Shown: positions 2,338 to 10,618, counted from the stretch's first letter. The stretch: DNA of 56,764 bases from Candidatus Tantalella remota (GCA_030765685.1 JAVCCB010000082.1:1-56764), one strand, 5' to 3'. Numbers and translations are program-made. Notes: generated by a model from the sequence alone, not told the origin.

Positions 2338-2897
2338 TGGGAATCGGGAATGGATCCAGGGTATCAGGTGATCAGGATATCCGGGACTGAGAGATCAGGC
2401 TATCAGGGAATTGGGGACAAATATCAGGAACAGTGAACTGGGAACAGTGAACAGCATATCTAAGTACCGGGTATCCCGCCTTCGCTGAAGCTTCCACCTT
2501 CGCCAAGGCTACGGCGGACGAGTCGGCGGACAGGCGGGTACCGAGTATCGGGCAAGCAAAAACTCAACCCAGATCCCTCGACTCCGACTCTTAGATCCTT
2601 CGAGTCGGCCCTTTGGGCCTCGCTCAGGATGACGAAATATACATGGTCGATACTCGTGAAAGCTTTCAAATTCGATACCGGGTACCGGGTATCGGGTACC
2701 GAGTATCGGGCAAGCAAAAGCTCAACCAGATCCCTCGACCCCCCCTGCAGCTGCTTTGTGCAGCAAAGCGCAGGGGTCGCTTCCGCCTTCGCTATCCGCT
2801 TTCGCTAAAGCTTCAGCGGACAAGAAGCTACCAGCCTTCGCTAAATCACTTATTCTTATCCAGCTTCGGCTGGCTTCGCGGCGGACAGGCGGAATGA
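2338..2897 (+). repeat. Mosaic intergenic repeat block: 7/8-nt tandem repeats, REP-like GATCCCTCGAC...GATGAC hairpins, nested mini-elements at 2475-2534 and 2782-2889
   Basis: Modules recur at 7860-8420, 10460-10620 and 29700-30110. Confidence 0.85.
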
Positions 2898-2988
2898 CAG
2901 TTTGAAATCAGGATTAGAGGAAATTATTGAATGACCTGCTTATCTCTAAGCAGCTGTTTGATCGAAGTAGCGGACTTATCTCTATATC

Positions 2989-3273
2989 TTAGGTAGACGA
3001 AGTCTGGTGCTTGAGGTGGGTCTGCTTCGCCCTCAAAAATGTTTTTTTACAAAAAGCCCTGCCTGACCCTGTCTTTAAATATCTTTCGAAACGTCTTGCT
3101 TTTTCTTCATTAGAAAAAGCAAGAAAATTTTTAACCTTCCAAGGCTTATGCCTGGTCGTATGCGGTACTCTGCCACTGTTGTGTTCCTTGAGCCGCATTT
3201 CAATGTTTTCAGTATATCCCGTGTACTTTTGCAATGGGTTAACTACTGACTGCAATTGGTATACATAATACAT
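2989..3273 (-). CDS. Small stand-alone GIY-YIG nuclease family protein
   Basis: YYVYQL...KYTGYTENIEMRLKEHN, TTRHKPW, ARRFERYLKTGSGRAF; C-terminus possibly extended by a frameshift. Confidence 0.9.
   Translation of the reverse strand: MYYVYQLQSVVNPLQKYTGYTENIEMRLKEHNSGRVPHTTRHKPWKVKNFLAFSNEEKARRFERYLKTGSGRAFCKKTFLRAKQTHLKHQTSST
2990..3020. repeat. Degenerate copy of tRNA-Leu 3' end plus trailer (att-like)
   Basis: taggtagacgaagtctggtgcttgaggtggg vs taggtaggcgaagtctggtgccggaggtggg (3484-3514), 28/31 identical. Confidence 0.8.
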
Positions 3274-3492
3274 AGGCCCGCCTTCGCTTATTACTTAATC
3301 TTATCTAGCTTCGGCGCGCAGACTTCGCCTTTCTTTAATGGCCTGCCAGACGAAGCCAGATACTATAAAAATAGGTAGGCTTTATAGGCCCGCCTTCGCT
3401 TATTACTTAATCTTATCTAGCTTCGGCGCGCAGACTTCGCCTTTCTTTAATGGCCTGCCAGACGAAGCCAGATACTATAAAAATAGGTAGGC
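3272..3492. repeat. Tandem duplication, 109-bp unit with 112-bp period (3272-3380, 3384-3492)
   Basis: Two apparently identical copies from ataggcccgccttcgc to ataggtaggc. Confidence 0.93.
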
Positions 3493-3498
3493 GAAGTC

Positions 3499-3585
3499 TG
3501 GTGCCGGAGGTGGGAGTCGAACCCACACGGAGTTTCCCCCACTGGATTTTGAATCCAGCGCGTCTGCCAGTTTCACCACTCCGGC
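3499..3585 (-). tRNA. tRNA-Leu(CAA), 87 nt, encoded CCA
   Basis: GCCGGAG acceptor stem, CTGGA-TTCAAAA-TCCAG anticodon arm, long variable arm, GGTTCGACTCC T-arm, ACCA end. Confidence 0.97.
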
Positions 3586-3606
3586 ACATGTATCTAAGAA
3601 AAAACA

Positions 3607-3635
3607 ATTGTATTATCCCTGCAACTATAAGTCAA
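3607..3635 (-). promoter_or_regulatory. sigma70 promoter of tRNA-Leu
   Basis: TTGACT-17 nt-TACAAT just upstream of the tRNA. Confidence 0.75.
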
Positions 3636-3642
3636 GTTCCTT

Positions 3643-7747: not shown

Positions 7748-7776
7748 ATTATAACCGTTAGTAGCTTATTTGGGAA
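7748..7776 (-). promoter_or_regulatory. Putative promoter of CHASE2-PP2C gene
   Basis: TTCCCA-17 nt-TATAAT. Confidence 0.5.
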
Positions 7777-7787
7777 TAGTTAATCTG

Positions 7788-8481
7788 AGTACCGGGTATC
7801 GGGTACCGGGTATCGGGCAAACCGGAGCTGGTTTAGGGGTTTAGTTTTGGAAACTGGAAACAGATCCAGGATATCAGGGAATCAGGGGTATTGGGGACAA
7901 ATATCAGGAACAGTGAACAACATATCTAAGTACCGGGTATCGGGTACCGAGTATCGGGCAAGCAAAAGCTAAACCTAGATCCCTTGGTTCGGCCTTACGG
8001 CCTTCGCTCCCGCCTTCCTCCTTCGCCAACCTATTTAGATTTTATCTGGCTACGGCGGACTTCGTCGCTGAAGCTTCCACCTTCGCCAAGGCTACGGCGG
8101 ACGAGTCGGCGGACAGGCGGGATGACAGTGAGGGACTCAACCAAAACCCCGTAACCCGAGACAGGGGATCAGGGAATCAGGCGATTGGGGACTAGGAAAT
8201 CAGGGAATCAGGGAATTGGGGACAAATATCAGGAACAGTGAACAACATATCTAAGTACCGGGTATCGGGTACCGAGTATCGGGCAAGCAAAAGCTAAACC
8301 TAGATCCCTCGGTTCGGCCTTAAGGCCTTCGCTCCCGCCTTCCTCCTTCGCCAATCTATTTAGATTTTATCTGGCTACGGCGGACGAGTCGGCGGACAGG
8401 CGGGATGACAGTGAGGGGCTCTATTGGACACGCAGTCGAGAAATCTGGTACTAAATACTGCATACTGAATACTAAATACTG
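7788..8481 (+). repeat. Mosaic repeat block with two related ~220-270-bp direct copies; nested elements at 8009-8117 and 8334-8400
   Basis: ttggggacaaatatcaggaacagtgaacaacatatctaagtaccgg...cgggatgacagtgaggg occurs twice; the second copy lacks 42 nt between repeated ggctacggcggac. Confidence 0.88.
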
Positions 8482-8505
8482 GATTTTGATAGTGTGCTTA
8501 AACTT

Positions 8506-9561
8506 CTAGAAAGTATAATATATCCCGGCCGTTATCACGCTGCCGGAGTACTTCTCGAACGGGTCATTGGAAGAGTTCTCTGAATAAGAATACGTCACGC
8601 TAACGGTAAGGTCATCCTTTATATCGTAGTAAAAGGACGAATTGAATATGTAAGTGTTATCCCTCTCCACATTATTTATGTTGTTTGTCGCGCGGCGATC
8701 CTTGTAATGGGTGTATTTGTACACAAGACTGAGGTCTGTGTAAAATTTATCGGTAAAAAAGTACATGATAGACGGGCGAAGCCTGTAGAGCCAGTAATCA
8801 TAATACTGCTCGAAAGTGTCATTGGAATCGTTCCTGGCGAACTCATTGCTGAGACCGACAAAGAAGTTCTCGGAAAAATAACCCAAATTGTATTTAAATC
8901 TTACCCTCTTATCGAATCGGTCCTTATCACTTATAAAGCCATTGGTAAGATACGTCTTCTGGTCCGGATACCAGCGCATAAGGTATTCGACGCCGCCCTC
9001 CTGATAGAAGTCCTTTGTAATATAGTGCCTGAGATAGGTCTTTAGATACAGTCCGTTGAAAGTGCTTTCCTCATCGTTGGGAAAGAAAAAACCGTCGTAT
9101 ATAAGACGTGTGCGAAGACTAAGACTGTCCATGATATCCCAGTCCAAGCCAACGAACGGAGATATGTCTAATATGTTGTTTTTGTTATACCTAAAATAGA
9201 TCGTAGTGAAAAGATCAAGACCGGCCTTGAGCTTGACATTATCGAGTATGGTATATTGTCCGTTGATGTTCGCCATTGTCTGGGAAAAACCGTCTTTATG
9301 CCTCTTGGAGTCAAGATCGACGTTATTGTCATACCCCATCTGCTGGTCTATATACCCGCCTGTCCTGAGATGGTCTTTAGGGTCATATTCCCATTCTTCC
9401 TGCTGCTCAAGCTGCTGCACTGTCGGAGGGGGAGGCTGCGCCCCCGGATATCTATCTTCGACCTGCTGGTCGATAGCATAGGCTCTCACAACGCTAAGAA
9501 CAACAAGCACAAAGCTTATTGCTAACGTTATAGTATGTCTGGTAACTCTTACTCTCATCAT
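8506..9561 (-). CDS. Outer-membrane beta-barrel protein
   Basis: Signal peptide, GYDNNV motif, Tyr/Asp/Asn-rich amphipathic strands, C-terminal GIYYTF; start overlaps the upstream stop. Confidence 0.8.
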   Translation of the reverse strand: MMRVRVTRHTITLAISFVLVVLSVVRAYAIDQQVEDRYPGAQPPPPTVQQLEQQEEWEYDPKDHLRTGGYIDQQMGYDNNVDLDSKRHKDGFSQTMANINGQYTILDNVKLKAGLDLFTTIYFRYNKNNILDISPFVGLDWDIMDSLSLRTRLIYDGFFFPNDEESTFNGLYLKTYLRHYITKDFYQEGGVEYLMRWYPDQKTYLTNGFISDKDRFDKRVRFKYNLGYFSENFFVGLSNEFARNDSNDTFEQYYDYWLYRLRPSIMYFFTDKFYTDLSLVYKYTHYKDRRATNNINNVERDNTYIFNSSFYYDIKDDLTVSVTYSYSENSSNDPFEKYSGSVITAGIYYTF

Positions 9562-10385
9562 TCTCCTATACTGACTGCCGTAGGAGGACTAGGGCACGGC
9601 TCTTCTTTTTTTACCTCTTCCCTAAGCTTCTCCAGCCGGGCACGCATATCACGTTCGCGTATATTGACTGCCACGCTTTCCCTTAAATTGTTCGATCTGT
9701 CTGTTATCTTTTCTCTGCGTTCGCGGCGTTCCCTGGTCTTCTCCACCTTCTTCTTAGGCCGGTCCGGGCGCTTGATCTGCTTTTCCATCCGGGCCATACG
9801 GGCGGCGCTTATCTTCTCCATTTTGTTGGGCTTCTGGAACTTTTTCACCCTTCTCTCAAAACCTTTTTTGACCCAATAATCTTTTTTCTTCTCGGTGCCG
9901 TCTTTATTCAGTCCGCGGACGAAAACCCGGTTATCAAAAACCGATACATCCGTTTCTTTATCGGTCGCTTTTGTCTTCCAGCCTGTCCCCCTGGCACCGC
10001 ATGTAGCACTCGGCGTCTTGACCTTGAATGTACCGCCGTCTTTTATGCCCTCGAGAAGAACATATAATTCGCCGTTAATAAGCTCTATTTTTTCGTCACC
10101 ATCAAGTTTAAGTATAACATCGCTGTTCTCGCTTACCTTGACGATGTTTAATCTATTCTCATCAAAAGCCATTTCCACATAGGAGCCGGCTCCGGTCTTG
10201 ACACGGCAACCCTCCTTGAGGACCATATTAACGTCACATGGCACGGACTTCGCACCCAGCTTAGGCGTAATCTCTACTGTACCTTCGTACGACACTACGC
10301 TGACTTCTTCTGCTGTAACAACAGATATACCCGCCGCACAGACAAGAACACACGCTATAAACAAAAATGTAAGGAATTTATACAT
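9558..10385 (-). CDS. FecR-domain periplasmic protein with charged C-terminal tail
   Basis: Start reassigned to MYKF (AGGAGG RBS); signal peptide; VKTGAGSYVE, VSENS, FKVKTPSATCGARGT, VSVFD. Confidence 0.85.
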   Translation of the reverse strand: MYKFLTFLFIACVLVCAAGISVVTAEEVSVVSYEGTVEITPKLGAKSVPCDVNMVLKEGCRVKTGAGSYVEMAFDENRLNIVKVSENSDVILKLDGDEKIELINGELYVLLEGIKDGGTFKVKTPSATCGARGTGWKTKATDKETDVSVFDNRVFVRGLNKDGTEKKKDYWVKKGFERRVKKFQKPNKMEKISAARMARMEKQIKRPDRPKKKVEKTRERRERREKITDRSNNLRESVAVNIRERDMRARLEKLREEVKKEEPCPSPPTAVSIGE

Positions 10386-10461
10386 ATAACCTCCTAAGAT
10401 TATATAGAATATACACTTATCTGGCGTATTTTTCAATAAAAAAAATAGCAGACGGTCTTGC

Positions 10462-10618
10462 TAAGTACCGGGTATCGGGCAAGCAAAAGCTAAACCCAGA
10501 TCCCTTGGTTCAGCCTTACGGCCTTCACTCCCGCCTTCCTCCTTCGCCAACCTATTTAGATTTTATCTGGCTACGGCGGACTTCGTCGCTGAAGCTACGG
10601 CGGACAGGCGGGATGACA
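10462..10618 (+). repeat. Third copy of composite repeat, with 79-nt nested element (10530-10608)
   Basis: Matches 7927-8127 but lacks the inner 30-nt unit. Confidence 0.85.

Follow-up and report, generated by a model that had tools for sequence, protein, structure and literature searches.

A 30-nt hairpin unit with precise, self-nesting insertion sites in Candidatus Tantalella remota and its core sequence in at least 12 phyla

The small dispersed repeats (SDRs) of Nostocaceae described by Elhai et al. 2008 are reportedly hairpin repeats of 21-27 nt found nested within each other as well as within tandem arrays of heptamers, and they are said to insert without target duplication and with no known transposase. 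In passages of other papers, SDRs are given a size of about 20 bp, are treated as possibly mobile and able to insert at HIP1 sites (PMC5861425, PMC2884548), and are reported in Nostocaceae only (PMC5861425). REP-associated tyrosine transposases (RAYTs) are described as cutting single-stranded repetitive extragenic palindromes (REPs) at C|T on the 5′ or 3′ side of the hairpin, with GTAG as a guide (PMC8266576, passages on cleavage), and REP families are presented as specific to the RAYT and the lineage (PMC6006769) or as lineage-specific (PMC12306157) in the passages dealing with their distribution. Here, we describe a 30-nt palindromic unit that recurs in a contig of Candidatus Tantalella remota (GCA_030765685.1, JAVCCB010000082.1). 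This contig, C80 of the source genome, was analysed over its whole length of 56,764 nt and is called the window below. The unit very probably inserts precisely as a mobile unit, and the data favor, with less certainty, a REP- or SDR-like DNA hairpin of very small size that is mobile but non-autonomous and moves as a single strand.

Repeats so short are usually dismissed as “loop variants” of REPs or as noise of low complexity, and metagenome assemblies break at them. Among DNA elements with the look of mobility, the unit ranks with the smallest and the most widespread so far. What is new is that the same 26-nt core, the same CT^TCG sites (^ marks the junction) and the same self-nesting occur beyond the source genome, in at least 12 phyla. 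Literature searches with 11-12-nt strings of the unit returned only unrelated primers, and searches on its sequence, on its nesting, and on REPs combined with “nested insertion” returned no description. The source genome (G000) is a metagenome-assembled genome of 2.03 Mb in 96 contigs (47% G+C, 94% complete), in which repeats may have been collapsed.

The unit and its insertion sites

Position counts over the units of G000 gave the consensus Y-CCGCC-TTCGC-YRARGCT-WY-GGCGG-ACARG, 29-30 nt in length, whose arms CCGCC and GGCGG can pair. A long form of 42-49 nt carries 18-20 AT-rich nucleotides in the apical loop, between TTCGCC and GGCT, and in a 79-nt composite, a 30-nt unit is interrupted after CCGCCT by a 49-nt long form. 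Scanning the genome with the degenerate 30-nt consensus (up to two substitutions) detected 95 simple units, far more than chance would give, compared with none in the reversed genome used as a control. A further 24 outer units were recovered by excision, bringing the total to 119, and 28 long-form candidates were found. As expected of a REP-type repeat, the unit is a short GC-rich palindrome of high copy number that lies mostly between genes: 96 of the 119 units were located outside the open reading frame (ORF) calls, which are crude and cover 86% of the genome.

The precise insertion claimed in the initial annotation of the window was borne out by empty paralogues in the genome, empty sites in a sister species, the positions of nested units, and the same pattern in other phyla. 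The flanks of each unit (11+11 nt) were joined and sought elsewhere throughout G000, and an exact empty-site paralogue was obtained for 37 of the 119 units, with a span of 30 nt in 33 cases and of 60 nt in four. Among the core-containing junction events in this genome, three had a 29-nt span (one of them also scoring as a 30-nt event), and none had a span of 28, 31, or 32 nt. No target duplication longer than 1 nt was present at the 37 sites, as had been proposed, and the combination of terminal inverted repeats with a target-site duplication of at least 2 nt that marks miniature inverted-repeat transposable elements was not found there. The observed pattern, with 0-1 nt duplicated and insertion 3′ of a short sequence in one orientation, is that of the insertion sequences (IS) of the IS200/IS605 type.

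On the left flank, position -1 was T in 87 of the 119 units and position -2 was C in 81, with CT in 64; on the right flank, position +3 was G in 90. When the first base of the unit was C, the right flank started with C as well (25 of 25), which indicates that one base is duplicated or ambiguous. The hosts belong to at least eight unrelated kinds, comprising two kinds of arrays, three REP types, the loop of a GTGCCC/GGGCAC hairpin, a GGGAGCA repeat, and the unit itself. Neither of the two outcomes that would speak against precise insertion was encountered: the boundaries were not ragged across G000, and the variety of hosts, here and in many phyla, does not trace to segmental duplication of one ancestral host.

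The nests gave a second view of the boundaries. Exact excision of units restored outer units in successive rounds of 18, 4, 1, and 1. In all 24 nests, the junction was at one of only two positions in the outer unit, after position 18 (15 nests, GCT^TCGGCGG) or after position 13 (nine nests, CGCT^RAAGCT), and every insert followed GCT. Shifting the cut by 3 nt lowered the first-round yield from 18 to 7-10, and shifts of 1-2 nt gave 16-17; because two substitutions are tolerated, such small shifts are nearly neutral, and the excision control is weak for fine boundaries. The deepest nest in the window is a five-level “Russian doll” of 150 nt on the minus strand (37438-37587), with five left arms followed by five right arms. 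The predicted hairpins of single-stranded DNA (ssDNA) nest as expected.

Individual sites in the window illustrate these rules (features are on the plus strand unless stated otherwise). The spacers between genes in positions 1-12500 are mosaics of four components: 12-mer arrays (GGTACCGGGTATC), heptamer-like arrays, REP-like hairpins (AGATCCCTCG...CGGGATGAC, reading (C)GTCATCCCG on the opposite strand), and the 30-nt mini-element. The array target GGGTAT^CGGGTACC is empty at 7935-7948 (junction 7940/7941) and likewise at 2692/3, 7799/800, and 8265/6; at 2475-2534, where the array consists of GGTACC/GGGTATC 12-mers, exactly 60 nt occupy it, a two-level nest whose inner unit (2493-2522) follows outer position 18. 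The REP end CGCT^CGGGATGAC is empty at 22598-22610 (junction near 22601). It is filled at 3693-3752, beside a tRNA-Leu gene, by a 60-nt nest (inner unit 3706-3735, after position 13), at 8009 by 109 nt, and at 29913-29959 by a 47-nt long form, not by a 30-nt unit. A single 30-nt unit on the minus strand (27117-27146) lies in a GGTACC array with eight empty paralogues.

One REP host occurs in three states, as the initial annotation had noted, and all the sites that it named were confirmed. The 79-nt composite is found at 10530-10608 in the REP GGTTCAGCCTTACGGCCTTCACT^CGGGATGAC. The 109-nt state (8009-8117) is a nest of three elements, namely a 30-nt unit, a 49-nt long form, and an inner unit at 8076-8105. 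In the 67-nt state (8334-8400), 42 nt are missing that are flanked by a 13-nt direct repeat, GGCTACGGCGGAC; a deletion between the two repeats would fit this derivative. It lies in a tandem duplicate of 325 nt, 98% identical (7886-8060 versus 8211-8385), whose module comprises an array, GCAAGCAAAAGCTAAACC, the REP, and the nest. Since this module was duplicated with the nest inside, host and insert can also be copied jointly.

The 79-nt composite was confirmed in a different host as well, a GGTACC-type array at 52135-52213 for which nine empty paralogues exist. A diverged copy, again with the long form after CCGCCT, is at 3780-3858 in a GGGTAT/CGGGTAT array, and a variant at 43631-43709 joins a 30-nt unit to a long form with a different AT-rich middle. 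A 60-nt composite with a rare TCCACC inner unit is present at several sites. The earlier suggestion that composites move as a unit is plausible, given the two unrelated hosts of the 79-nt form and the several sites of the 60-nt form; part of their spread is nevertheless explained by duplication of host and insert together, because the hosts are themselves repeated modules.

Two further composites were noted in the window. A 108-nt composite identified by eye (2782-2889, in the REP at 2728-2899) contains, within its outer unit, a 30-nt unit at 2795-2824 and a long-form-like insert with a CCAGC/GCTGG stem. A nest at the contig start (1-61, inner unit 20-49) is repeated with its flanks (1-75) at the end of contig C1 (about 34592-34660). 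As judged from this shared sequence, the two contigs probably abut, or the assembly broke at the repeat.

Comparison with a sister species (G001) extended the empty sites to another genome. Its contig C50 is syntenic with window positions 3499-10484, and the genes are 79-85% identical. The REP beside the orthologous tRNA-Leu gene (C50, about 1489-1525) has an empty CGCT^CGGGATGAC where G000 has 60 nt, and the tRNA-Leu-to-REP alignment of the two genomes is 92%. In the spacer after the next gene block (C50, about 8401-8445), a REP of the subtype GGTTCGGCCTTACGGCCTTCACT^CGGGATGAC is empty and its G000 counterpart holds the 79 nt at 10530; the orthology of this REP is probable but not certain, since the spacer is about 270 nt longer in G001. 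The proposed presence/absence difference between sister genomes was thus found at one clearly and one probably orthologous REP. In addition, G001 has a nest of its own, whose arms are TCCTCC...GGAGGA, in a spacer that is free of nests in G000, and downstream of a RAYT-like gene it has one long-form element versus two nested ones in G000. The initial annotation had called the insertions recent, and this holds in relative terms only: the sites are not the same in a congener with genes 79-87% identical, and two 57-nt nests are 100% identical.

Ten-codon in-frame insertions in genes, for which a search had been suggested, were found. The NusA protein of G000 (contig C72; Pfam NusA_N, S1, KH_5, and HHH) has three in-frame units in its acidic C-terminal tail, which reads ...EQGA[SASAEA(M/T)(A/V)DK]GSVEEE...; the NusA tail of G001 shows the empty motif SMEQGA|GSVEEE, although the two tails are not fully alignable. 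Another case is an rlmN-like gene on a Sedimentisphaerales contig (L078), in which, by eye, a unit stands in frame (SAFAKATADK) just before GMGEPL. Being 30 nt long and open in most frames, the unit can also persist within genes, where it adds 10 codons to regions that tolerate them. A related observation was made on contig C89 of G000 (218-8767), where a frame of 2849 residues with GNAT and methyltransferase domains has linkers of the type QGTGEE..LE..GAGSRE.KPDTRYSIPGTEKST. These linkers are translated intergenic-type repeats and mini-elements, with units in both orientations, all in frame and free of stops; the frame may encode a genuine giant protein whose linkers are repeats, or else open repeats have fused several genes.

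Hairpins with the architecture of the long form also follow tRNA genes. Directly after 13 of the 43 tRNA genes of G000 there is a hairpin CCAG(A/C)(C/T)-TTCGCC-[AT-rich]-GGCT-TC-(GTC/AGC)TGG-CAGGCC, the stem of which uses the CCA end of the tRNA; the remaining tRNA genes have ordinary T-run terminators. Several trailers carry a 30-nt unit at GGCT^TC together with an inverted second element downstream. In the window, the trailer of tRNA-Leu(caa) (3452-3503, minus strand, stem CCAGAC/GTCTGG) has this architecture without a 30-nt unit, and the orthologous trailer in G001 is a plain hairpin, CCATTTCTGC-TTC-GCAGAAATGG. A tRNA-Leu trailer module with an inverted long form is also present as a perfect 109-nt tandem duplication at a spacing of 112 nt (3272-3380 and 3384-3492).

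Distribution beyond the source genome

A scan of one genome per species for the 26-nt core CCGCCTTCGCNNARGCTWYGGCGGAC gave at least 118 matching stretches, among which 80 loci were examined. These loci represent at least 12 phyla. Judging by the record titles, the carriers belong to Acidobacteriota, Verrucomicrobiota, Planctomycetota, Bacteroidota, Alpha-, Gamma-, and Deltaproteobacteria, Bdellovibrionota, Elusimicrobia, Armatimonadetes, Omnitrophota, and a lineage of the Candidate Phyla Radiation (CPR). With uniform composition, well under one match would be expected by chance, and a reversed-pattern control gave 0 matches in sets of 41, 5, and 301 genomes. In the other phyla, the core stood at the apex or in the arm of local hairpins, again at CT^TCG sites; the base before CCGCC was T in 68 of the 80 loci, and CT preceded that T in 34. 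Stems covary between genomes: all seven copies in one genome (G313) have CCTCC/GGAGG, and CCACC/GGTGG and CCCCC/GGGGG were also found. Within G000, eight units have the compensated stem CCGCT/AGCGG.

Complete genomes also carry the element (up to three mismatches), with 23 copies in Bradyrhizobium, 12 in Bdellovibrio, 10 in a member of Cyclobacteriaceae, and 8 in Armatimonadetes. On the Bradyrhizobium chromosome, the host site GGATTGCT^TCGC...GCTCGCAATGAC was empty 159 times and filled at locus L080. Nests of 2-4 levels were observed in 27 metagenome contigs with unrelated flanks, and one of them, with more right than left arms in view, indicates that slippage is a further way for arms to multiply. 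Of 301 genomes sampled from the phylum, 39 had at least one match with up to two mismatches; G000 had 95 copies, the next two genomes 17 and 7, and the other carriers 1-6. With 95 copies versus 0-17 in 300 relatives, G000 is a burst genome, and its 119 units and about 28 long-form candidates constitute a natural record of the insertion rules.

Two local arrangements deserve mention. In a contig of Candidatus Roizmanbacteria (L102), the tail of the unit (GGCGGACAAGGAGG) provides a Shine-Dalgarno-like AAGGAGG just upstream of an ATG. In loci of Acidobacteriota such as L042, L069, L074, and L094, a diverged copy in inverted orientation (CGCCGTAGCCTTGGCGGAGGCGG) comes directly after the unit, inside the host hairpin GGCCCGACCT...AGGTCGGGC. 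This doublet resembles a REP doublet forming a hairpin (REPIN) and was not seen in G000.

Mechanism, candidate enzymes, and alternative explanations

In our reading, the unit inserts in one orientation and without target duplication (at most 1 nt), directly 3′ of (G)CT and 5′ of YSGG. The target sites lie in the loops or arms of other palindromes, namely REPs of the CGTC type, arrays of GGTACC 12-mers, and the trailer hairpins of tRNAs; a further two within the element itself account for Russian dolls up to five deep. The element would move as ssDNA, by cleavage and rejoining at CT|, like IS200/IS605 and REP-RAYT systems, with the enzyme supplied in trans and, as the weakest step, perhaps being a Y1 HUH nuclease. 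The lack of target duplication, the fixed orientation, the short 5′ signal, and the hairpin nature of donors and targets point to ssDNA cleavage and rejoining. Enzyme-driven insertion, an inference of the initial annotation, remains just that, because no enzyme could be tied to the element.

Y1 HUH nucleases were the sole candidate enzyme class found in G000, and they are the weak link of the mechanism. Two Y1 genes were detected, on C24 (503-1084; 88.4 bits against NCBIfam REP_Tyr_transpos, cut-off 80) and on C68 (L012:1468-2421; 66.8 bits); no RVT_1 or IS110 (DEDD) transposase was found in this 94% complete genome. We consider it possible but doubtful that a Y1 nuclease carries out the insertion.

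Several observations weigh against a mobile hairpin moved by such an enzyme. A different palindrome, TAACCWGGTTA, is found on the flanks of the two Y1 genes of G000, with 53 copies in the genome versus about 4 expected, often as TTAACCTGGCAGAAAC-TAACCAGGTTA-TAAATGC; copies lie at C24:1099-1140 and 1281-1480, on C68 (L012:2660-2740), and at 26074 and 55656 of the window. As it flanks both Y1 genes and also the G001 ortholog, this palindrome is likelier to be the cognate repeat of these nucleases. Just one long-form nest is near the C24 gene, about 200 nt downstream and inside a TAACCWGGTTA palindrome. The 30-nt unit was present in 0 of 19 Y1 loci of other genomes (1.5-2 kb flanks; G002, G006, G022, and 11 further relatives included), Y1 genes occur in 34 of 41 relatives and the element in 7 of 41, and a PF01797 search of the Bradyrhizobium chromosome with 23 copies gave no match. 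RAYTs separate the C from the T, whereas the units described here begin after the complete CT. The GTAG guide (GCTAC when read on the upper strand), a form of the GT[AG]G tetranucleotide conserved at the 5′ foot of REP hairpins, occurs in just 52 of the 119 units, in which the lower strand reads CCGCC-GTAG-CCTT GGCG AAGG; the others have ATAG (29), GAAG (30), or AAAG (7). A REP found across phyla is also at odds with the usual lineage-specific picture of REP-RAYT systems.

Some of the contrary points concern the hairpin and its mobility as such. The predicted DNA hairpins are barely more stable than shuffled sequences (z = -0.8 to -1.9), so thermodynamic stability alone is no marker of the elements, and 23 units of G000 have an uncompensated mid-stem mismatch, CCTCC or CCACC opposite GGCGG. 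The orientation of units relative to neighboring genes showed no clear bias (37 co-oriented, 26 anti, 23 mixed). Neither reads nor metagenome contigs revealed presence/absence polymorphism. Eight runs, labeled as salt lake metagenomes, contained the stretch; four of them (X1-X4), compared with window positions 2000-11000, yielded low-depth contig fragments that break at repeats and are uninformative on polymorphism, and no joints with a 30-, 60-, or 79-nt skip occurred in these fragments. One contig of X4 spans 10441-10632 in the filled state. A metagenome allele scan for the site at 27117, with the flanks 0-30 nt apart, gave no match.

Because of the spread over phyla, a conserved host enzyme is a serious alternative to a Y1 nuclease. 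In its boldest form, the idea is that of a pan-bacterial, self-nesting hairpin of about 30 nt, the smallest known, moved not by a dedicated transposase but by a conserved housekeeping ssDNA enzyme that would recognise the hairpin and cut CT|YSG; we rate this as unlikely. If true, it would account for the same sequence in at least 12 phyla, including genomes without a Y1 gene, and for “large-loop” REP variants, tRNA-trailer copies, and 10-residue protein segments (SAFAKATADK etc.). Element clusters in two complete genomes adjoin ordinary genes, for example an ORF resembling orotate phosphoribosyltransferase (first 60 residues, by eye). The question raised is that of the enzyme behind the recognition of one and the same 26-letter core across at least 12 phyla, and cultured carriers with complete genomes (Bradyrhizobium and Bdellovibrio) make it testable.

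Recombination is the first of the explanations that dispense with a mobile element. Here, gene conversion, template switching, or microhomology-mediated repair would copy 30 nt between hairpin loops via CT...TCGG. The targets do resemble sequences inside the unit (CCT|TCGC and GCT|TCGG), the 42-nt difference at 8048 fits simple recombination of the two 13-nt repeats, and no dedicated enzyme was found. The ambiguity of the junctions amounted to 0, 1, 2, and 3 nt in 13, 17, 3, and 4 of the 37 supported units, respectively; thus, microhomology of 1-3 nt is available at 24 of the 37 sites, but 13 insertions took place without any. Hosts such as GGGAGCA^GGGAGCG (NusA tail) or GGGTGTT^AGGTGTT have nothing in common with the unit, the spans are always exactly 30 or 60 nt, and the orientation relative to the target motif is fixed. 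On this balance, recombination appears quite improbable as the general explanation.

Slightly lower still is the probability that we give to a cellular function, with the unit being a binding site or an RNA or DNA signal (in tRNA 3′ processing, transcript stability, or termination) maintained by selection and mobility being secondary. A near-identical core in at least 12 phyla would be expected of such a signal. The 13 of 43 tRNA genes with a trailer hairpin of the same architecture, paired with the CCA end, the intergenic position of 96 of the 119 units, and the AAGGAGG supplied before an ATG in the CPR locus point in the same direction. A search of Rfam with window positions 1-12000 (E ≤ 1), however, gave no family for the unit, only tRNA and one chance match to a miRNA model. 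The zero copies in 262 of the 301 phylum genomes, against 95 in G000, form the pattern of a selfish burst, five-deep nests and in-frame inserts in NusA and the rlmN-like gene have no obvious use, and units occur in both orientations relative to neighboring genes.

Finally, segmental duplication of one ancestral host already bearing the insert, with the “empty” sites being deletions, is most improbable: many hosts are indeed repeats, the 325-nt duplicate (98% identical) carries its nest along, and the 60-nt nests C80:2475 and C1:10111 have similar flanks over at least 20 nt, but at least eight unrelated host types include a protein-coding tail, the identical core occurs in unrelated hosts of other phyla, one Bradyrhizobium REP site is empty 159 times versus a handful filled, and the deletions would each time need to remove a base-exact 30 or 60 nt.

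Comparison with known systems

A very small mobile hairpin, as favored here, shares a number of traits with REP/REPIN-RAYT systems. Both consist of short GC-rich palindromes that are mostly intergenic, form mosaic arrays, and sometimes lie in frame in genes; cleavage would be at CT beside the hairpin, in 52 of the 119 units, GTAG stands next to a short hairpin on one strand, and G000 encodes RAYT-like proteins. The differences are equally distinct. Copies of the unit flanking a RAYT gene, the REPtron arrangement, were not found, and the family is not confined to a lineage, with one carrier genome (Bradyrhizobium) having no Y1 gene match. In addition, single units appear to move rather than inverted doublets, and self-nesting at fixed positions is not reported for REPs in the passages of the sources cited above.

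With IS200/IS605 elements, the unit shares the absence of target duplication, strand-specific insertion 3′ of a short sequence, and recognition of hairpins in ssDNA. These elements are several hundred nucleotides long or more, whereas the unit has 30 nt, no coding capacity (no TnpA between subterminal hairpins), one hairpin serving for both ends, and a target signal of just 2-3 nt. Rickettsia palindromic elements (RPEs) are about 100-150 nt long and known only from Rickettsia and relatives; we know of no nesting of RPEs at fixed sites. Like the unit, they are palindromic repeats that occur in frame in genes, and the genes are described as remaining functional (PMC3733652, passage on RPEs). With the unit, recurrent 10-residue inserts and spurious peptides in predicted proteins (AFAKATADK, PPSPRLRRT, and RRSLGEGG) are accounted for.

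The hosts of the unit in G000 are REPs of the CGTC type, (C)GTCATCCCG..., and resemble in this the CGTC-tagged REPs of Di Nocera et al. 2013, which are described, in the part of that paper concerned with them, as having no dedicated transposase, REPs also being found inside other palindromes (PMC3733652). For Bradyrhizobium, the same part mentions loops of GTAG-14 REPs of the “GCGG/CCGC type” with up to 27 bp of complementary residues and GCGG/CCGC termini (PMC3733652). Matched by their description, these large loops are probably the same element inside a REP; that passage regards them as variation in the loop of a single REP family within a single genus, not as an independent unit inserting into many hosts and phyla (PMC3733652). 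The present data provide a rule for the annotation of such mosaic intergenic regions, namely CT^YSGG sites, no duplication, and fixed nest positions.

Among nested mobile repeats of very small size, the SDRs of Elhai et al. 2008 are the closest precedent. As reported for SDRs, the unit is a hairpin of 20-30 nt that nests in itself and in arrays of short repeats without target duplication. By description, it is set apart by its length of 30 nt and by a core found in at least 12 phyla, as against the single family named in the SDR passages cited above. The preference for CT^YSGG sites, the long form, and the tRNA-trailer relatives distinguish it further. If the 30-nt unit inserts by itself, with precision and in a variety of hosts, mobile DNA outside cyanobacteria can be smaller than its previous lower size limit.

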